From Blastocatellia bacterium (GTDB taxonomy: Bacteria; Acidobacteriota; Blastocatellia; UBA7656), in NCBI GenBank assembly GCA_963832205.1, contig CAWHTK010000005.1:44318-108317 (forward strand): a DNA stretch of 64,000 nucleotides, written 5' to 3'. Below, piece by piece: positions 6,901 through 44,304 of this stretch; position 1 is the stretch's first letter; each line of letters opens with the position of its first letter. The position numbers were made by a program, and so were the translations under genes. The notes under the pieces were generated by a model that was given only the letters and a program-made list of their open reading frames with translations, was not told the origin of the DNA and made no database searches.

Positions 6901-9156
6901 CTAGAAGACGACCAGTGTAAAAGCGCTGTCTACGAGCGCCCAACCGGCTGAAGGAGTGGCCCCTATTGACCAGGTCCGAACTTTGATCTGGTTGGGGGCG
7001 AGGAATTCGATTGTGGCCGAAATCCCGAAGTTGCCGCTCGACTGAGGGGTGACGACAACGAAGCGGTCGTTGACCGGAAAAGGAAAAGTGATTATAGATT
7101 CGCCGGGCCCGCCCGGCCCTACCGCGCGGGTGAATCCATTGCAAGTATTAACGGCGGCGGCAAACGTAAACTCGGTAGCCTGAAAACAACTGGGCCCGCT
7201 CGCCTCGTATCGAAACATGGCTTTGACCCATCCGCCTTTCTCCCTGTATTGAATCACATTCCCGTTTGCCCGCACGGCGAATCCGTTTATCGTCGATCCG
7301 AAGACGCCTATACCATTTGTCGATTCGCCTACTACGCCATGTCCGTTGTTGGCCGTGCCTGCCACGCCGGTTCCAACGTCGCTCGTTGTTTCTCCGACGA
7401 TGCCATGCAGACCCGTGCTGCGAGTCCTTATGCCTGTTCCTGAATTATCTATGGTCAGGACAGCGCCGACTGATTGTGCGCTGAGCAATAGCGGAACGGT
7501 GAGTTTTGATCCGCTCACCGACTGTGGCGCAAGTTTTTCGGCAGTCACCGCAAGATTGTCTATCTGTGGTGTCCCTATCGAGAGCGCCCCGAGATGCTCG
7601 CCATGAATCGCGCCGTCGGCAATCTGCTCGCGGCTTATGGTCTTATCGGCAATCTGTTCCTTTCTTATCGTTTTGTCGGCGATCTTATCGCTTGTGACGG
7701 CTTTTGCGCCGAGCTTGCGTACAGTCACAGCCTCATCGGCGAGCTTTGTCACGGTGACGGCATTATCGTCGAGCTTTTCATCGGTTATCGACTTGGGCGC
7801 TATCTTGCGGACGGTCACGGCCTCGTCGGCAAGCTTATCGACCGTGACCGCGCTGTTGTCGAGCTTCTCTTCGGTCACGGCCTTATCGTCGAGCTTTTCC
7901 CTGGTCACAGCTTTGAGCGCGAGCTTCTTGTCGGTCACGGTAGAGTCGGCGAGCTTGTCGGCTGGAATCTCGCCCGCGATGTGTGTGGGGCCGACACTAT
8001 TTTCGGCCAGGTGCATACCTTTGACAGCCCCGCCGCCGATATGCTGCGAGCCTACGGAATTCTCTGCTATGTGTTGGCCTGCGACGGCCGCCGGCGCAAG
8101 ATGCGCGCTCGCGACTGCCTGCGGAGCTATGTGCGTGCCTGCGACGGCCTGGGCGCCAATATGCTGCCCCCGTACTGCTTGCGGAGCTATCTTCGCGGCA
8201 GTCATGGCACTGTCGGCTACCATAAAAGTCTCGACGCCTTGCTCGGCTATTCCGAGCTTAACCATGCCGCCGGTCCCGCCTCCGTCAAGGCCGGTTGACG
8301 CTACAACTCCGGTGACCGACCCATCCGTGTCCCCTATAGCTGCTGTTGTCTGTATGCTCCCGTCGGGGAATTTTATCCCGCCCGTAGTGGAATGAATTAA
8401 TCCCGCTACTTCGAGAAACGAGTTCGGATTACTCGTGCCAATTCCCGTGAGGCCCTCGCTTGTAATCCACAGGCGGTTCTTGTTACCGGTTCTAATCCCG
8501 AGCGGGTGATTCGAGACTGTCCCAAATAGCCCATTTATGTTGTCTTGAAAGATAAGCGCTTCGCCTCCACTTGCGCTCTTGACTACTATGGACGAGCCCC
8601 CTTCCTCCTGCACCATAAGAGTACCGCCGGCCGTCAGCGGCGCGGCCCCTCCGGTTCCTACATGCAGGCGGGCGAGCGGATTCTGTGTGCCCAGCCCCAT
8701 ACGTGGAGTTCTTATCTTGTAAGGGTTATCACCTTGATCTACATCCCAGTCTTCTACTCCCTGCGTTTTTACGGTGGCGGACAGACCGCCCGCGGAAGCG
8801 ACCGACTCGCGCTTGTGGCCGAGTATTATATTGCCGCTCTGTTTCTGTATGCTGCCCGATTCATCAATAAAAGTTATCGTGTAGGAGTAGATGCCTTCAG
8901 CAGCAGGCTCGCCCGTAAGGTCATTCTTTAACCAATCTACAATCTGTGCCTTAACGGTCCCGCTATCATAGACCATATCGCCCGAGGCATTTGACACCTC
9001 TATACGGTGCGCCCGGCTGTTGTCAGGCAAAGCAAAACGAACAATGTTGCGGGATAGCGTAATACTGACTTCTTTACTTTCTGATTGTGAAAAGCCATAG
9101 ATCGAAATCAGCATTACCAATATTAGGCTAAGAACGCATTGTGATTTTCGCATCAT
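6901..9156 (-). CDS. Secreted fibrous/adhesin-like protein with ~23 tandem decapeptide repeats
   Basis: N-terminal signal peptide MMRKSQCVLSLILVMLISIYGFSQS. Central run of 10-aa units, first (I/L)A(P/E)xAVxGxH x7, then xLADxAVTxx x~14 (e.g. KLADEAVTVR, KLGAKAVTSD, KIADKTIRKE). Gly-rich segment and C-terminal globular domain. 24-nt gap to the protease gene on the same strand. Confidence 0.5.
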   Translation of the reverse strand: MMRKSQCVLSLILVMLISIYGFSQSESKEVSITLSRNIVRFALPDNSRAHRIEVSNASGDMVYDSGTVKAQIVDWLKNDLTGEPAAEGIYSYTITFIDESGSIQKQSGNIILGHKRESVASAGGLSATVKTQGVEDWDVDQGDNPYKIRTPRMGLGTQNPLARLHVGTGGAAPLTAGGTLMVQEEGGSSIVVKSASGGEALIFQDNINGLFGTVSNHPLGIRTGNKNRLWITSEGLTGIGTSNPNSFLEVAGLIHSTTGGIKFPDGSIQTTAAIGDTDGSVTGVVASTGLDGGGTGGMVKLGIAEQGVETFMVADSAMTAAKIAPQAVRGQHIGAQAVAGTHIAPQAVASAHLAPAAVAGQHIAENSVGSQHIGGGAVKGMHLAENSVGPTHIAGEIPADKLADSTVTDKKLALKAVTREKLDDKAVTEEKLDNSAVTVDKLADEAVTVRKIAPKSITDEKLDDNAVTVTKLADEAVTVRKLGAKAVTSDKIADKTIRKEQIADKTISREQIADGAIHGEHLGALSIGTPQIDNLAVTAEKLAPQSVSGSKLTVPLLLSAQSVGAVLTIDNSGTGIRTRSTGLHGIVGETTSDVGTGVAGTANNGHGVVGESTNGIGVFGSTINGFAVRANGNVIQYREKGGWVKAMFRYEASGPSCFQATEFTFAAAVNTCNGFTRAVGPGGPGESIITFPFPVNDRFVVVTPQSSGNFGISATIEFLAPNQIKVRTWSIGATPSAGWALVDSAFTLVVF
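7590..8290. repeat. 30-bp tandem DNA repeats (coding decapeptide repeats of the 6901-9156 gene)
   Basis: Units such as gtcacggccttatcgtcgagcttttccctg / gtcacagctttgagcgcgagcttcttgtcg / gtcacggtagagtcggcgagcttgtcggct recur with 30-bp period. Both strands give long repetitive ORFs (7594-8298, 7637-8395 are antisense artefacts). Confidence 0.65.
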
Positions 9157-9490
9157 ATCTTTCTCCTAAGACTCGCCTGGGCAGGCCGGCAATAGAGCGC
9201 GGACGGATGGCCTGCTTTAGGTGGATGGCCTTGTTGCAGGTGATCGAAAATACCGGGCGCATGCCCGATGCATAAGAGCCGCCCGCCGTTGTCGAAGCGG
9301 TTCGGGCGGTTTTTCATATATTCTGAAAGGCAGGTATGTTACATTTGTGGCGCTTTTCTCATCTTTAATTTTCGTCTACATTAAGATGAGGAGCGGCCCA
9401 GCGATCGGTGGTGTTAACTACCCGGCCTCGCTAGGCAGGTTAGTTTATATGTTCTTAGAAGTCCTTAATTAATTCTAAAAGAACCCTAAA

Positions 9491-10964
9491 ATGAATATAA
9501 GAGCACGGGCTGGCTGCCTGTACGAGTTTGGACCCTTCAGACTTAATACCGCGGAGCGATTGCTGATGCGAGACGGTCAGGCTGTGCCGCTTACCGAAAA
9601 AGCCTTTAACGCGCTTGCGATGCTGATAGAAAACAGCGGGCATCTGCTGGAGAGGGAGGAGATGCTGACCGCTATCTGGCACGACAGCTTTGTCGAAGAA
9701 GCAAACCTTACTGTCACTATCTCAGCAGTCAGAAAGGCGCTGGGCGAGCAGGCCGGACGGGCAATCATATATAGAGACAGTGCCGAAACGTGGCTATCGC
9801 TTTGTGGCCGAGGTAAGTCTGCTGGATGAAGGGAGAGAGTTACTTACCCAGAGGCAGCGTGGCCCGGCAGATGATGAGCGCTCAACCGGCAGGCCGGTTA
9901 TGCTCTCCAGCCAGACGACCCTCCCGGCCTGGCACCTGGACCCCGTGGGCGGGGCAATCCGGCTGGATTCAATTTTCTACATTGCTCGCCCCGCTGATCA
10001 TGAATTTCACTGCGCGGTATCGCGCGGCGATAGTATCGTGCTTATCAAAGGCCCGCGGCAGGTCGGGAAAACTTCTCTGCTGGCTCGCACCCTTCAACTG
10101 GCGAGGGATTCCGGGGCCAAAGTCGTCGTGACGGATTTTCAGGCATTCACCTCCAGAGACCTTGAGAGCACGGATAACCTGTTATTAGCCATGGCCAATT
10201 ACATCGCCGAGCAGCTTGATTTGGATGTGCTTCCTGCCCAGGTATGGGTTGCGGAGCGAGGCCCCGGCATAAACTTGGAGCGATATCTAAGGCGCGAAGT
10301 GCTGGGTCGTATATCTTCGCCAATTGTCTGGGGACTGGACGAGATAGACAGGCTTTTTTCGTACAGCTTCGCAAGCGAGGTGTTCGGCCTTTTTCGCTCA
10401 TGGCATAACAAACGCGCACTTGAGCCGGTTGGCCCCTGGCGCAATCTCACGCTGGCAATTGCATACGCCACGGAAGCCCATCTGCTTATCACGGACGTGA
10501 ACCAGTCGCCGTTCAATGTCGGCACCTGTTTCACACTTGAGGATTTTACAATCGAGCAGGTATCTGAACTCAATCGCAGGTACGGCGCGCCGCTTGTGGA
10601 TGCCTCTGATCTGGCGACATTCTTTAACCTCGTGGGCGGCCATCCGTTCTTGTCTCACCGGGGGATATATGAGATGGCCGAGCATGCCATCAAGATTAAT
10701 GAGCTGCAAGAAAGCGGCGCGAGTGACCAGAGTCCATTCGGAGATCACCTGCGCCGGTTGGCCCTCTCTTTGTCGCGCGATTCGAAACTCTTGCAAGCAG
10801 TGCGCGATGTCATTGAAGGGCGGCAGTGTCCCGGCGCCGAGACCTTCTATCGTCTGCGTAGCGCCGGTGTCTTGTCGGGAGAGACGACGCGCGCATGCCG
10901 GCTCCGCTGTCAACTCTACGCTGCTTACTTGCGGAATCACTTTTTCGAGGGCGAACGGCAATGA
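9491..10964 (+). CDS. CadC/OmpR-type winged-helix DNA-binding domain fused to AAA_35-like P-loop NTPase; frame broken near 9755-9765
   Basis: ORF 9491-9829 holds the N-terminal part of a trans_reg_C wHTH (...[54 protein letters not shown]). ORF 9690-10964 in another frame continues with the canonical wHTH end [17 protein letters not shown], then Walker [18 protein letters not shown] and Walker [16 protein letters not shown] stop overlaps the ATG of the next gene (ATGA). Confidence 0.6.
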
Positions 10965-13900
10965 CGAAGCAAGTGCCGTCGATAACCCACGTATCCGCGC
11001 TGCCTTTTTACATCGCGGGTGGCACATTGCGCCACGACGCGGCCTGCTACGTTGTTCGAAGGGCTGATGACTATTTGTATAGCGTGCTGGCGCGAGGAGA
11101 TTTCTGCTATGTGCTCACTTCGCGGCAGATGGGAAAATCTTCCTTGATGGTCCGCACCGCGATGCGGTTCAGGGAAGAATCGGCGGGTGTGGTAGTTTTG
11201 GACCTGACTGCGATCGGGCAGAACATGACAGCCGAACAGTGGTATGACGGATTGCTCGCGATGATGGGAACGCAATTGGACCTGGAGGATGAGCTTGATC
11301 AGTTCTGGAGAACGAGCTACAGGCTAGGCCCAATGCAGCGGTGGGCGCGGGCGATTCAAGAAGTTGTGCTGCCAAGGTATCTGGGGCCGGTGATAATCTT
11401 TATTGATGAGATTGACGCCGTGCTAAGCCTGCCTTTCTCTACCGACGAATTCTTTGCAGGCATACGAGAGTTCTATAACCGCAGAACTCAAAACCGTGAC
11501 CTTGCCCGACTGACGTTCTGCTTGCTGGGCGTAGCTTCACCCTCGGACCTGATACGCGAGACTCGCACAACTCCGTTCAACGTAGGATACCGGATTGAGC
11601 TGACGGACTTCACCGACGGCGAGGCTGCTCCCATCGCGCGCGGGTTCAATCGCCGGGAGCGGTCGGCGGCCGCATTGCTACAGCGCATTCTTTACTGGAC
11701 GGGCGGGCACCCATATCTGACGCAACGGTTATGTCAGGTAGTGGCGAAAGATGCGGAGGCCATGGGCCCGGGCGACATTGATCGTTTTTGTGAAGAATTG
11801 TTCTTCTCGCACCGGGCGCAAGAGCGGGATGATAATCTGCTCTTTGTGCGAGAGCGATTGCTGAGAAGCGAAGCTGATCCCGCAGCTCTGCTCGGAATGT
11901 ATAGCAAAGTGCGCGCGGGCAAGCGGGTGGTTGACGAAGAGGAAAGCGCCCTTGCCGATATACTCAGGCTGTCAGGAGTTGCAAAGGTGGAGGGGGGAGC
12001 GCTTCGAGTCCGAAACCGTATATACGCGCGGGTCTTTGACCAGAAGTGGATCAGGGCCAATATGCCCGATGCCGAGCTGCGCCGACAGCGGGCCGCATAC
12101 CGTCGCGGCCTTGCGCGCGCCGCCGCCATTGCTGCCGTCATTATTCTCATAATAGCCGCGCTTGCGATGGTGGCGCTCAAGCAGCGCGACGAAGCCGAGC
12201 GGGCGCGATTGGAGGCGCAGAGACAGCAGAAAATCTCGAAGTCGCGCGAGCTGGCCGCCCGCTCTATCGCGTTGTTGGCGAGCGATCCCGAGTTGAGCCT
12301 GTTACTGGCTAGCCAGGCAGTTGAACGCTTTGCTTACACGACCGAAGCGGCAGATGCCATGAGGCGGTCGTTGCGTGAATCGCACGTCAGCTTAGTACTG
12401 CGCGGTCACAAGGGATGGGTTTGCAGCGCCTCCTTCAGTCCCGACGGCAAGCTGATAGCCACTTGCGGTGCCGACCGTATGGTGCGGCTGTGGGATGCAA
12501 GCACCGGACAGATGCTTGCGGAAATGAGCGGTCACACGAATCTCGTTTACTCGCTATCTTCAGCCCCGACGGCAAGTTTCTGGTGACGAGCGGATTCGAT
12601 AAGACGGCCCGGCTCTGGGACGTTGGCTCCAGGCGATGTGTAGCCGTGCTGGCAGGGCACACTAGAAACGTGCATCATCCGGTCTTCAGCCCCGATGGCA
12701 GTATCATCGTATCGTGCAGCGTTGACGACACTGCGCGCGTATGGGAGACAAGCACCGGACAAATGCTTGAAGTGCTCAGAGGGCATATAGGGGAAGTGAG
12801 GAAGGCTACCTTCAGTCATGACGGTAAGATACTGATCACGACAGGCTTTGATAAGACGGCGCGAGTGTGGAACGTAAAGACCTGGAAGACGCTGGCGGTG
12901 CTGAAAGGTCATACGGACAACGTTATCAACGCCGATTTCAGCCCCGATGATAAGATGATGATAACGACCAGCACTGATCAGACCGGTCGGGTCTGGGATA
13001 CAAATACCTGGCAATGTATAAGCGTATTGGGCGGACAGGCGGGCGAGATGATGAACGCCTCGTTCAGCTCTGATGGTAAAGTGGCGCTCACCGCAAGTTA
13101 TAGCGATACGGTGAATATATGGAATACAAAGACGTGGCAAAGCGAAAGGGAGTTGAAGGGCCACAAAAGCGGGGTGCGAAGCGTTGTGATAAGTTCCGAC
13201 AACAAGCTTGCCGTGACAGCCAGCGAAGACGGCACGGCGCGAGTGTGGGAGATGAGTACGGGAAAGAGTATTAAAGAGTTGCGCGGGCACACGGGAGGTG
13301 TTACAGAGTGCCACATTCAGCCCGGACAATAGGTTTGTTCTTACCTCTAGCGTTGACGGGACGGCGCGAGTGTGGGACATCGAATGGGGGAGTTTCAGAA
13401 CAGAGATGCTTGGGCACCAGGACAGTATTTTCAGCATAAACTATAGCCCTGATGGCAAGCTCGTTGTTACCTCGAGCGCGGACCAAACGGTGCGGGTGTG
13501 GAATGCCACCATAGGCGAGTCTTTAAGTGTGCTGCGCCACCCGGATTGGGTCTTTACGGCGGATTTCAGCCCGGATGGCAGGTTGTTGGTAACGGCGTGT
13601 CGTGATGGTGTGGCGCGTGTCTGGGAGGTGGATGAAGACCGAATTGTTATGGAACTGCGCGGCCACACAGAGCCATTGATCACCGCCGCATTCAGCCCCG
13701 ACGGGAAACTTATTGTTACTACGAGCCTGGATAAAACGGCGCGAATCTGGGACGCAGCCACCGGAGAGCTATTGCGGGAACTTCGGGGGCACACCCAGCC
13801 GCTTACATTTGCGCAATTCAGCCCCGACCTCAATCTCCTTGCTACTTCGAGCGAGGATTTGACGACCAGGGTATGGGAAGTCGGCACCGGCCAGTGTCTG

Positions 13901-37801: not shown

Positions 37802-37884
37802 AAGTCAGGAGTCAGAATAAAAGAAAAAGCGTTTCGCGCTGACTTCATTTTCATTCTGTCTTCTGAATTCTGACTCCTGACTCC
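37801..37884. repeat. 18-bp inverted repeat GAAGTCAGGAGTCAGAAT / ATTCTGACTCCTGACTCC hairpin between accB and accC
   Basis: 17/18 complementary arms at 37801-37818 and 37867-37884; same motif family as 21064-21180. Confidence 0.75.
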
Positions 37885-37896
37885 CGACCATATCAT

Positions 37897-39289
37897 ATGT
37901 TCAAGAAGATTCTCATAGCGAACCGCGGGGAGATAGCGACACGCATAATATGGGCCTGCAAAGAGCTGGGCATAAAGACCGTCGCGATTCACTCGGAAGC
38001 GGACCGGGACTCCCTGCATGTGCGCTTCGCCGACGAGGCGATCTGCATCGGGCCGCCCCCGTCGTCTAAGAGTTACCTGAACATCCCCTCGGTCATCTCG
38101 GCCGCCGAAATCAGCAATGTCGATGCCATTCACCCCGGCTACGGATTTCTGGCCGAAAATGCTTACTTCGCCGAGGTGTGCGAAGCATGCAATATAAAAT
38201 TCATTGGCCCAACCCCCGACAGCATTCGCCTGATGGGCGATAAGGCCCAGGCGCGCGCCGCGATGAAGCAGGCAGGGGTGCCGATCACGCCCGGGTTCGA
38301 CGGCATAATCGAGGACGAAGATCAGGCGGTTGGAGATAGCCGAACAGATCGGCTATCCCGTCATCATAAAGGCTTCGGCCGGGGGCGGCGGGCGCGGCAT
38401 GCGCATAGTCCGCGATCGCGGAGAATTGCTCGCCGATTTACCGGCGGCCCAGCACGAGGCGCAGCTCGCCTTCAATAACCCCGCGGTCTACATAGAAAAA
38501 TATATCGAGGTCGCGCGCCATATAGAGATACAGGTCCTCGGCGATGTGCACGGAAACGTCGTGCATCTTGGCGAGCGCGAATGCTCGATACAGCGCCGCC
38601 ACCAGAAGCTGATCGAAGAGTCGCCTTCGCCCGCGCTTACGTCGGAACTCAGACAGCAGATGGGCGAGGTGGCCATGCGAGCCTGCCGCGAGATAGGCTA
38701 CGTCAGCGCCGGCACGATGGAATTCTTGCTTGACGAGAACTCGAACTTTTACTTCATGGAGATGAACACTCGCATACAGGTCGAGCACCCGGTGACCGAG
38801 ATGGTCACCAACACCGACCTCGTGCGCGAGCAGATACTGGTCGCGGCGGGCGAGCGATTGGAGTTCGGCCAGGAGGATATAGTCTTTAGCGGCCACGCCA
38901 TCGAGTGCCGCATCAATGCCGAATCGCCTCTGACCTACGCCCCGTCGCCGGGGTTAATCACCGCGATGAATCTCCCCGGGGGGCCGGGCGTGCGAGTCGA
39001 TACAGCGGCCTACCCCGGCTGGTTCGTGCCGCCGCATTACGATTCGTTAATCGCGAAGCTCATAGTTCACCATCGCACACGCGAGATGGCGATAGCGCGT
39101 ATGAAGCGCGCGCTTGAGGCTTTCATCGTCGAGGGCATCGAGACATCAGTCCAATTGCACCAGCGCATCCTCTCCGACCCTGATTTCGTGGCAGGACGCC
39201 TGTCAACAAAATTCATGGAGCGATTTATCGCCCCTCGACCCGCCGGCAAGGGGCGGGCGCAAGAGGCGTCACTGGGCGTCCCCGAATAA
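37897..39289 (+). CDS. accC: Biotin carboxylase; frame broken by 1-nt indel near 38320-38330
   Basis: ORF 37897-38478 = [42 protein letters not shown]... to ...IEDEDQAV, then out of frame. ORF 38330-39289 = [26 protein letters not shown]... Removing one g from gcggttggagatagcc gives AVEIAEQ and a contiguous ~450-aa AccC. Confidence 0.9.
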
Positions 39290-39916: not shown

Positions 39917-39950
39917 GATTATCCTGGCCGCCGCCGCCGCCATAATCATA

Positions 39951-39994
39951 AAAAGCGAAGGGCCGGAACACTGTTCCGGCCCTTCGCTTTTCTC
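39951..39994. terminator. Bidirectional intrinsic terminator between convergent thiE and the DUF1573 gene
   Basis: AAAAGCGAAGGGCCGGAACA c TGTTCCGGCCCTTCGCTTTTCTC: 16-bp perfect stem, A-tract 5' and T-tract 3'. Confidence 0.8.
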
Positions 39995-40027: not shown

Positions 40028-41134
40028 TTAGTTGAAAGTCGCCTTGATCGGGACTTCGAGCACAGGCGTTTCAGGGTCGTTCGTTTCAATGCGAACCTTG
40101 CCCTGATGCTCGCCCGCTTTTATCTTCGACTGGTCCAGCTTGAGTTTTATCATATAGACTTCGCCTTCTTTTTCGGTGACAAGCTCAAGCTGAAGGAAGG
40201 GAAGCGTCGATTTGTACGAGTTGATCTTTAGCCCGCCTTTGCGCACCTTGCGGACGTAAATTGCCGGCCAGTTGATCGAAGAGAGATCGGACGAAGCGGG
40301 CAGCGTAGGCATAATGATCGAAGTCGGCATCGCGAATATGCGCGGGAAGATCGTGGCCTCAAGCTCGACGGTCATCTCGGGCTGCTTCGGGCTGTCGGTT
40401 ATTAGTCGCACCGATTGGCGGTACTGTCCCGGCTTGAGCGCGGAGTTAGTCGCGACATGCAGCTCATACCTCTTGCCGTCCTGAATGGGGTGAAGCGTAG
40501 CCGTAAATTTAGTCCCGCCGGGTATGACCTTTTTTATGCGGACTGGCTTTGCTTCGGGGTTGTAGAGGTAAAGCCGGCTCGCCGAGCTGGTGCCCGCCAG
40601 GACGCTTGTCACCCAGCGGTTGACCGGCTCTATGACAAAGGGTCCGACCTGTTTTACAGGGACCATCGGGGCCGATGTGTGAGTCGGCGTCGGCGCGGGC
40701 TCCATCTTAAACCGGGCGCGAAGTACGAGGCCGAAGCTGGCCTGTTGCGGATCGTTGGTCGTCACGCTGGCTGACTTGACTATCTCTCCGACGTAGCCCT
40801 GCGTATTGTCTATTCTCAGTTCGATCTTTCCCTCCTTACCAGGAGGCACGACTTTGTCGTAGTCGCCTTTTGTGCATCCTCAGCCAGGGCTTACGTTTTT
40901 GATAAGCAGATCGCCTTTGCCCATGTTCTTCAGCTTGAAGACGTGAACCAGGGGTACGCCCGCTTTTACTTCGCCAAAGTCATGACTGAGAGAGTCGATA
41001 ACCATTTTCGGAGCCGGCGGCGCATCAGCCGGCGATTGCCCCGGCTCTAGCTGCGAACGAGTGGTTTGCGCCAGGGCCGCAACCGCCAGGAAGAGCGCGA
41101 GGATCGGCGCTGAAATATGCCTGATAAATCTCAT
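40028..41134 (-). CDS. Secreted DUF1573-family protein with in-frame TGA (40880-40882) at the first Cys of the conserved CGC motif (selenocysteine candidate or premature stop)
   Basis: Signal peptide MRFIRHISAPILALFLAVAALAQT. DUF1573-like HDFGEVKAGVPLVHVFKLKNMGKGDLLIKNVSPG-TGA-GCTKGDYDKVVPPGKEGKIELRIDNT. ORFs 40880-41134 and 40028-40849 are in the same frame, separated only by the TGA. Confidence 0.6.
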
Positions 41135-41208
41135 GTGACAATTGCTCCAGGACCTATATTGTATGCATCGGAGAGTTTACCAGATGCCACTATGGCTGTC
41201 AGCCTCTT

Positions 41209-42602: not shown

Positions 42603-44304
42603 ATGGCCCCTGTCGCTCTTGACCATAAACTAACCCGGCTCGAAGAAGCCAAACATCGCTTTGACCCAAAGAGCAAAGCGCTCGTCAAAAAGCTTCTCTC
42701 CGCAATCGCGCGGGCCAAATTCTCGGATGCGGATCAGCTCATTCGGTTTCACGAAGCACTCCTCTTCTTGCGGGCGCACCCTCACAGCCGGGAAGTATTG
42801 CGCGAGGTTGAGAAACTTCTTTCATCCTTCGCTCATCGCGTCGTGCAACTCGGTCAATCGGGCGTAGATATGATTGCGTTCGACTATATAGAGTATTCGG
42901 GCATTGCGGGGACAATAATGTCCGGAGAGTTCAGTTACGCGATCGTCCGATGGCTCGCGGATCGCTATCCCGACAGCGTTTCCATAGACTGGGAGAAGTA
43001 CGAAAAGAGAGAGCGGCTTGCCCGCGTGTTGCAACGGTTCTTGCCGCTGCTTTATGAGGATACGCTTGTCGAAGCAAACATCCCATATCTCGACTGGCTT
43101 CGCGCGGCGGGTGCGCGCCCGGATAGAGACCTTCACTGGTTGCTGCGCCGCTTCGATCAAATGCCGATCTCTGATAGAGAGAAAGCGGACCTTTACGAGA
43201 GCCTGGAGTTAAAGATTCAATATGCCCTCAATAATTCTAAAGGCACTCGCACAAATTTAGTCCGGCCACCAGAGAAGGTTTATTATCACACCGGCCCGCT
43301 CATACGGCGAAGCGATGTTTCACTCGAAAAAGAGATTAATGCGCCGCCGATACCATTGAAGAGACTCTCACGCATCCGGGGGCAGGAGATGATCGATATG
43401 CTGCGCGATGCGGTAACCGTCCGCTACCGCGAGTTGTACGGCATTACCCACGGCGATCCGGATAGCGTAGTGCACGCGAGCCGTCGGGCGCGGGGTCGAG
43501 CTTTACCTGTGGGGGTTGCCGCCGCGGCGCCGGTTGCCGCTTCGCGCATATCACGCCGGCTTTACTCTAAAAAACGGAGTGCCGATTAACTATATAGAAG
43601 GTATCTCGCTCTTTGACCGGATGGAGATCGGCTTTAATCTTTTCTACACGTTTCGCGACGGAGAATCTGCGTGGGTATATGCGCAAGTGCTTCGACTGCT
43701 CCACCAGGTATCGGGCGTGACCTGTTTTTCGGTCGACCCTTATCAGATCGGCTTTAATAACGACGAGGCCATCGAGTCGGGGGCCTTCTGGTTTTATCGC
43801 AAGCTTGGTTTCAGGCCCGCGCGCCCTGAGCTTGCAAAGCTGGTCGAAGCAGAAGAGAGGAAGATGGCCCGGTTGCCCGGATACAGGTCCTCGGCTCGCA
43901 TGCTCCGACGGCTCTCCCGCGGCAATATCGTTTATGAAGTATCCGGCTCGACGAGCGGCTATTGGGACGGGTTTCATATACGCAATCTTGGGCTCGCCGT
44001 ACAACACAAGATGGGGAAACGGTTTGGTGGTGATTCTTTAAAGATTCGGAGCGCATCAAGAGAAAAGGTGGCGCGGGCGCTTGAGGCCGACCCCTCGAAA
44101 TGGAAAGAGTCAGAGAGATACGCTTTCGACAACCTCGCGCTGGTCCTGGCGCTCATCCCCGATCTCGCGGAATGGACGGATACCGAGAAGCGAGACGTAG
44201 TTCAAATCATACGCGCGAAGATGAGCGCGGACGAATCAAGATACCTGCGATTGCTTCAGCGCCATGCGAAGCTGCGCGATGCCATACGCAAGATTGGTTC
44301 ATGA
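42603..44304 (+). CDS. Hypothetical protein (~565 aa) split by an apparent frameshift near 43480-43530
   Basis: ORF 42603-43589 ends in an Arg/Ala-rich out-of-frame-looking tail. ORF 43516-44304 (other frame) continues a coherent sequence (GFTLKNGVPINYIEGISLFDRMEIGFNLFYTF...AFWFYRKLGFRP, GNAT-like flavour). No confident family assignment. Confidence 0.4.

Follow-up and report, generated by a model that had tools for sequence, protein, structure and literature searches.

How should an in-frame TGA be read when it falls inside a conserved protein domain? We asked this of a minus-strand gene in a 64,000-nucleotide stretch of contig CAWHTK010000005.1 from a Blastocatellia bacterium (Acidobacteriota), referred to below as the window. 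The original prediction held that two open reading frames (ORFs), 40880-41134 and 40028-40849, share one frame with only a TGA between them, and that this TGA puts selenocysteine (Sec) in place of the first Cys in the C-G-C motif of a DUF1573 protein. The shared frame is confirmed by reading the strand: from 41134 to 40028 there is one minus-strand frame of 369 codons, including the final TAA, and its sole internal stop is the TGA at 40882..40880, the codon that closes the listed ORF 40880-41134. Such a codon could be decoded as Sec, could be read through with some other amino acid, could be a true stop, or could be an error or a recent mutation. As set out below, comparison with homologous sequences makes it very probable that the TGA is a genuine Sec codon in a protein of the DUF1573 (OS_HP2) family.

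A DUF1573 gene interrupted by TGA

The peptide around the stop reads …LIKNVSPG-TGA-GCTKGDYDKVVPPGK…. Public gene calls divide the frame into two ORFs, one of 84 aa (40880-41134) and one of 273 aa (40028-40849) that begins at an internal GTG start, and both fragments are present as separate database proteins, P0121 and P0001. When the TGA is bridged with Cys, the resulting protein matches the Pfam DUF1573 profile (PF07610) with an E-value of 1.3e-24 and 86.5 bits against a cut-off of 26.1. Because this match covers residues 46-131, the domain spans the TGA. The bridged protein also matches NCBIfam NF041425, named "OS_HP2 family (seleno)protein", over residues 49-140 with 108.3 bits (curated cut-off 100) and an E-value of 1.8e-31. 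The position assigned to the TGA in the original prediction is borne out by alignment of the homologues, as the TGA column coincides with the first Cys of an invariant C-G-C-T in every full-length homologue. The only Cys-type residues in the window protein would be Sec85 and Cys87. Features of the gene and its surroundings are collected in Table 1.

Table 1. Features of the interrupted DUF1573 gene and its flanks, in window coordinates. Plus signs count nucleotides after the UGA.
Feature	Coordinates	Strand	Remarks
Proposed complete selenoprotein gene	40028..41134	-	368 residues including Sec85; ATG at 41134; TAA at 40030..40028
In-frame TGA (putative Sec, residue 85)	40880..40882	-	First position of the U-G-C motif, codons 40882..40874
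Candidate N-terminal signal peptide, MRFIRHISAPILALFLAVAALA, followed by Q	41069..41134	-	By inspection: basic n-region, hydrophobic core, A-L-A before Q
DUF1573/OS_HP2 beta-sandwich domain with U-G-C	40715..40999	-	First of three tandem Ig-like domains; profile matches and AlphaFold
Hairpin H1, GCGAC(U)/(A)GUCGU	40848..40866	-	+14..+32, 5-6 bp
Hairpin H2, CCUCCU-GGUA-AGGAGG	40831..40846	-	+34..+49, 6 bp, loop GGU[A/C]; proposed SECIS core
Possible promoter, CTGACA-17-TAAACT	41202..41174	-	Promoter-like consensus match only; weak
Possible ribosome-binding site, GGAG	41148..41145	-	Read from the sequence ahead of the ATG; weak
Intrinsic terminator	39950..39992	-	36 nt past the TAA; 20-bp G+C-rich stem, then UUUUU

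An AlphaFold model of a Cys homologue (P0004) consists of three tandem beta-sandwich domains with a mean pLDDT of 82.6; in the first domain its C-G-C occupies a turn that joins two strands, where pLDDT is about 90. Foldseek matches were limited to generic tandem Ig-like or ASH-type domains, including ciliary central-pair proteins, cadherins and RTX adhesins, together with PDB entry 2qsv; none of these fold matches offered a functional lead, and a sequence search of the PDB with the protein returned no match. The 2qsv entry is an uncharacterised protein of Porphyromonas gingivalis whose likeness to the present protein is one of fold. The signal peptide, read by eye, predicts that the protein is exported through the cytoplasmic membrane.

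On the minus strand the gene has no companions: its neighbours are plus-strand housekeeping genes, namely rpoA, rplQ, accC and thiE to one side and, to the other, acpS and the genes for an MBL-fold hydrolase and a sigma-70 factor. Its surroundings give no functional clue. The terminator hairpin downstream of the gene folds at -38.9 kcal/mol (z -9.2) and is absent from the output of a consensus terminator scan; it sits between the convergent thiE and DUF1573 genes and could serve both. Two further plus-strand loci of the window show overlapping frames. The accC gene is split over window positions 37867-39289, with 37867-38478 encoding Biotin_carb_N and 38330-39289 encoding the ATP-grasp and C-terminal domains. 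An indel in the assembly is the probable cause of this split, which agrees with the earlier remark that errors elsewhere in the window are indels. At the other locus, ORFs 42603-43589 and 43471-44304 share ~118 nt in different frames and neither has a Pfam match; they may be two genes of unknown kind or a further gene that an indel has split.

Conservation of the TGA among homologues

A protein search returned 191 relatives, and lengths are described here for the best 120 of these. About 100 of the 120 are proteins of ~270 aa that align with only the C-terminal 74% of the query. This limited coverage indicates that they are cut at the same place as the window gene. Full-length proteins, of 353-368 aa, number about 15 among the same 120. 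We compared the gene across 79 loci of species-representative genomes, of which almost all are bins of Blastocatellia or of other Acidobacteriota. Homologous genes were found in 77 of the 79 fetched loci, giving 78 genes and, with that of the window, a set of 79 whose protein identity extends down to ~30%.

At the motif column TGA is found in 70 of the 79 homologous genes and TGC or TGT in the other 9; TAA, TAG and non-Cys sense codons occur there in none of the 79. At L030, L048-L052, L056 and L062 the Cys form is the sole one present. On a neighbour-joining tree, parsimony places Sec as the ancestral state, with about 8 independent changes from Sec to Cys, all of them at tips. Every homologue has a Met and an N-terminus of the signal-peptide type upstream of the TGA, and variability at the three codon positions in this upstream stretch (0.34/0.25/0.58) follows a coding pattern. 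Between the window gene and its closest relative (L001), dN/dS is 0.151 over the 45 codons before the TGA and 0.151 over the 283 codons after it. The two halves around the TGA are thus under equal purifying selection.

Several loci have features of their own. At L042 (JACQTD010000201.1, positions 8850-11200) there are tandem paralogues, in which a Cys form (TGC at 9141) is directly followed by a Sec form (TGA at 10333). Two bins of Terriglobia carry a short, single-domain version with the same U-G-C, downstream hairpins and a genuine stop (L078, 9941-10381, and L079, around 5426); the version in L078 has 146 residues. From these two loci it appears that the Sec domain and its SECIS also occur outside the three-domain architecture and outside Blastocatellia. 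Thirteen loci (L003, L014, L030, L037, L039, L048, L050-L052, L062, L064, L066 and L076) come from records titled 'uncultured Clostridia', 'Heliomicrobium' or 'Heliobacteriaceae'. Since their gene copies cluster among those of Blastocatellia and other Acidobacteriota, these bin labels look wrong. A scan of the window and the related loci for other families with a conserved in-frame TGA found none, and only the DUF1573 family passed; the other clusters of in-frame TGA across the loci were off-frame shadows or gene boundaries.

RNA structure downstream of the TGA

We examined codon usage on either side of the TGA in the 70 TGA forms and found that several codons downstream of it are nearly frozen: GAC at +6 (69/70), GTC at +10 (69/70), CCT at +12 (68/70), CCT at +13 (65/70), GGT at +14 (64/70) and GAG at +16 (65/70). 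Flanking synonymous sites (-2, +1, +17 and +18) use two to four codons freely in these same genes, and the 9 Cys forms vary at all of the codons that are frozen in the TGA forms. Third-position diversity is 0.29 over codons +1..+19, compared with 0.58 upstream and 0.65 further downstream. There is therefore a constraint at the RNA level downstream of the TGA, and it is present in TGA forms only. Fisher tests of codon choice between TGA and Cys forms are descriptive only, because composition and relatedness confound them and the control codons -2, +1 and +17 differ too.

The constrained stretch can form two adjacent hairpins, H1 and H2 (Table 1). H1 is paired in 97% of cells without covariation, and alone it folds at -5.6 kcal/mol. 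In the Cys forms 3-5 of its 5 pairs are kept, in part because the Asp codon GAC and the Val codon GUC are complementary; H1 probably serves as a spacer or as an accessory stem. On its own, H2 folds at -9.1 kcal/mol, a value that none of 200 shuffled sequences reached, and it is encoded by the codons of a conserved peptide, P-P-G-[K/Q]-E-G. All 6 of its pairs are present in 60 of the 70 TGA forms, whereas the 9 Cys forms retain 2-5 of the 6. Given that H2 is broken in the Cys forms and H1 is largely kept there, it is H2 that appears to be the element specific to the Sec forms. Together the two hairpins fold at -16.8 kcal/mol (z -3.6), and Cys-form sequences lack such a fold. At the SECIS-like element, the sequence of the window does not depart from the consensus.

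The case for these hairpins rests on conservation rather than covariation. Pairing is kept in 98% of cells, and among the 70 near-invariant sequences there is a single compensatory pair (in L033, CUUCC/GGAAG); the observed score was reached by 44 of 500 shuffles. Rfam gave no match, either for the whole window at gathering thresholds or for 40760-40920 at E-values up to 10. The original prediction had named a different hairpin, UACGAC-AAA-GUCGUG at +19..+33. It does form in a 91-nt fold of the window sequence, but its pairing is not conserved, and because it cannot form in most relatives we reject it as a functional element.

We compared H2 with the consensus bacterial SECIS (bSECIS) using the rules of the bSECISearch model as given in PMC13188914. 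In this model an apical loop of 3-9 nt is carried on an upper stem of 4-16 bp, at least one G occupies the first two loop positions and is usually followed by G or U, the loop is spaced 16-37 nt from the UGA, and the free energy is -7.5 kcal/mol or lower (PMC13188914). The 6-bp stem and 4-nt loop of H2 fall within these ranges, as does its free energy, and all but a few of the 70 TGA forms have GGUA or GGUC as the loop. The spacing falls outside: the loop starts at +40 and so leaves 39 nt between it and the UGA (38 without the U39-A44 pair), against 16-37 in the model. Like the bSECIS of the E. coli fdhF type, H2 would be a stem-loop within the coding sequence soon after the UGA, and its loop starts with G-G-U. 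The present element differs from the consensus in that a second conserved hairpin, H1, fills the gap between the UGA and H2, and in that the stem arms of H2 are the anti-Shine-Dalgarno-like CCUCCU and the Shine-Dalgarno-like AGGAGG. Judged by its sequence and predicted fold, the element resembles a bSECIS without matching the consensus model strictly.

In the 70 TGA genes, these two arms bear what we take to be a resemblance to the anti-Shine-Dalgarno tail of 16S rRNA and to a Shine-Dalgarno site. We note this resemblance as a curiosity, which may or may not have a role of its own, for example in pausing the ribosome at the UGA.

Decoding of the UGA and its implications

The proposal that Sec replaces the first Cys of the motif draws support from several directions: the codon is TGA in 70 of 79 genes and otherwise only a Cys codon, purifying selection is equal on both sides of it, the downstream RNA is constrained in TGA forms only, NF041425 is matched above its cut-off, and a DUF1573 family with a U-G-C motif is listed in the literature. 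Under this reading, the gene at 41134..40028 would yield one exported protein of 368 residues, with a signal peptide, a DUF1573/OS_HP2 domain bearing U-G-C and two further Ig-like domains. At the UGA, SelB carrying Sec-tRNA(Sec) would be recruited to the ribosome by structure in the coding sequence just downstream. The recruiting structure would comprise H1 at +14..+32 and, directly after it, the 6-bp H2 at +34..+49, to which SelB would presumably bind.

The best-surviving alternative, though an improbable one, is that the UGA is read through without Sec, and that residue 85 is Cys, Ser, Trp or Gly supplied by a suppressor or near-cognate tRNA. Such a tRNA could be, for instance, an acidobacterial allo-tRNA(UCA) or a SelC*-like tRNA-Cys, and the hairpins would then promote read-through rather than bind SelB. 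Allo-tRNAs that are possible nonsense suppressors have been described from Acidobacteria, as have tRNA-Cys species that mimic tRNA-Sec (Mukai et al., PMC5389517), and the spacing of H2 outside the consensus range would suit this explanation. So would the outcome of our search for the Sec machinery: selA and selD (by tblastn) and tRNA-Sec (by aragorn) were not found in the window and the 79 loci, which together hold ~1.2 Mb of related flanking sequence. The tblastn queries were E. coli SelD and SelA sequences, of which only SelD was validated, with a score of 620 bits against the NCBIfam SelD profile. ARAGORN found no tRNA in the 64-kb window and 1 tRNA in 1.26 Mb overall, fewer than expected, which makes the tRNA-Sec negative for the loci weak. 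Because the DNA searched covers only about a quarter of one percent of the genomes concerned, as estimated from typical genome sizes, a negative result for the Sec machinery was to be expected by chance and carries no weight. Read-through without Sec would also have to accommodate the existing record of the family as a selenoprotein with the motif UGC, the fact that the sole replacement seen is Cys, in the classic Sec/Cys pairing, and an H2 whose stem and G-G-U loop are those of a bacterial SECIS. Finally, TGA ends 37 of the 81 stop-to-stop frames of at least 200 codons in the window (not all of which are genes), including that of the neighbouring thiE. UGA is therefore not reassigned genome-wide, and a general suppressor would be costly where TGA is a common genuine stop.

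Less probable still is that the TGA is a true stop that ends an 84-residue secreted peptide, with a separate 273-residue protein encoded downstream. Translation would restart at the internal GTG (40849) or at an Ile codon past AAGGAGG, and AAGGAGG would then be a Shine-Dalgarno sequence rather than an arm of a SECIS. Gene callers do annotate two products, and the 3' arm of H2 is indeed a perfect Shine-Dalgarno-like AAGGAGG. However, no canonical start codon lies at a usable distance past this sequence, and the downstream product would have no signal peptide. Either product would also comprise only half of a beta-sandwich, as the DUF1573 domain extends across the stop. Moreover, the stop is always TGA (70/70), never TAA or TAG, and it is replaced only by Cys, which fuses the halves. 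This conservation, together with the coding pattern upstream of the TGA and the dN/dS shared by both halves, makes two independent genes very unlikely.

The remaining explanation, that a TGC or TGT was miscalled in sequencing or assembly, or that a recent nonsense mutation has produced a pseudogene copy, could appeal to the likely assembly indels in the window, such as that which spreads accC over two frames, but it is excluded by the occurrence of the same TGA in 69 homologous genes from independently assembled genomes of many projects and by the coding pattern and dN/dS of 0.15 on both sides of the TGA, and is further at odds with the SECIS-like sequence of the window matching the consensus; the genuine nonsense mutation that had been named earlier as the other possibility is thereby effectively refuted.

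We return to the Sec reading and to the family in which it places the gene. OS_HP2 was first reported as a new selenoprotein in the symbionts of Olavius algarvensis in 2007 (Zhang & Gladyshev, PMC1976440), and the prokaryotic selenoprotein families listed in the reviews PMC9312934 and PMC13188914 include a DUF1573 domain-containing protein (PF07610) with the motif UGC. The present gene shares with this OS_HP2/DUF1573 family the same domain and the same U-G-C with Sec at the position of the first Cys, and Cys homologues exist in both. It differs in host and in architecture: OS_HP2 was first described from deltaproteobacterial symbionts of a marine worm, whereas the present gene is from Blastocatellia (Acidobacteriota), and unlike OS_HP2 as first described, its OS_HP2 domain is followed by two extra Ig-like domains. 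The selenoprotein family and its U-G-C motif are thus already catalogued, and the present gene is an unannotated member from a different phylum with a longer architecture. The Cys-type DUF1573 proteins (PF07610) resemble it in the beta-sandwich fold and the C-G-C-T turn; they differ in having Cys for Sec, in lacking the frozen synonymous sites and in lacking H2 downstream.

Acidobacteriota (formerly Acidobacteria) have been known since 2006 to include Sec users. In the literature we searched, no paper links Blastocatellia with selenocysteine, and no characterised DUF1573 protein was found. As to what the site might do, we can offer a low-confidence guess that U-G-C forms a selenenylsulfide redox site, or binds a metal or metalloid, on a protein of the cell envelope.

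We also consider, tentatively and as a proposal that we think is rather doubtful in its entirety, that an exported selenoprotein with three Ig-like domains is both ancestral in Blastocatellia and common there, and that its UGA is decoded through a two-hairpin element with a SelB-binding loop 39 nt downstream, beyond the 16-37 nt of the model, on a stem whose arms mimic anti-Shine-Dalgarno and Shine-Dalgarno sequences. If this were true, the two-hairpin element with its 39-nt spacing would constitute a distinct class of bacterial SECIS, and an envelope-located selenoprotein would exist in a major lineage of soil bacteria whose use of selenocysteine is not reported in the literature we searched. 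The SECIS-like spacing outside the consensus could be used to probe how strict the spacing rules of SelB are outside E. coli.

These findings leave the accepted picture of selenoprotein biology as it is; both the family and the motif had been catalogued before. There are gene calls to correct, in that annotation divides the present gene, and about a hundred of its relatives in the databases, into a stray ORF of 84 aa and a truncated protein of 270 aa, where the product should probably be a single secreted selenoprotein of ~368 residues. The U-G-C site is a good entry point to the function of the DUF1573 domain. By implication, decoding of selenocysteine would be shared by many Blastocatellia, which are abundant among Acidobacteriota and are known for the most part as metagenome bins, and Sec would have persisted in this envelope protein through a long stretch of evolution, giving way to Cys only now and then.
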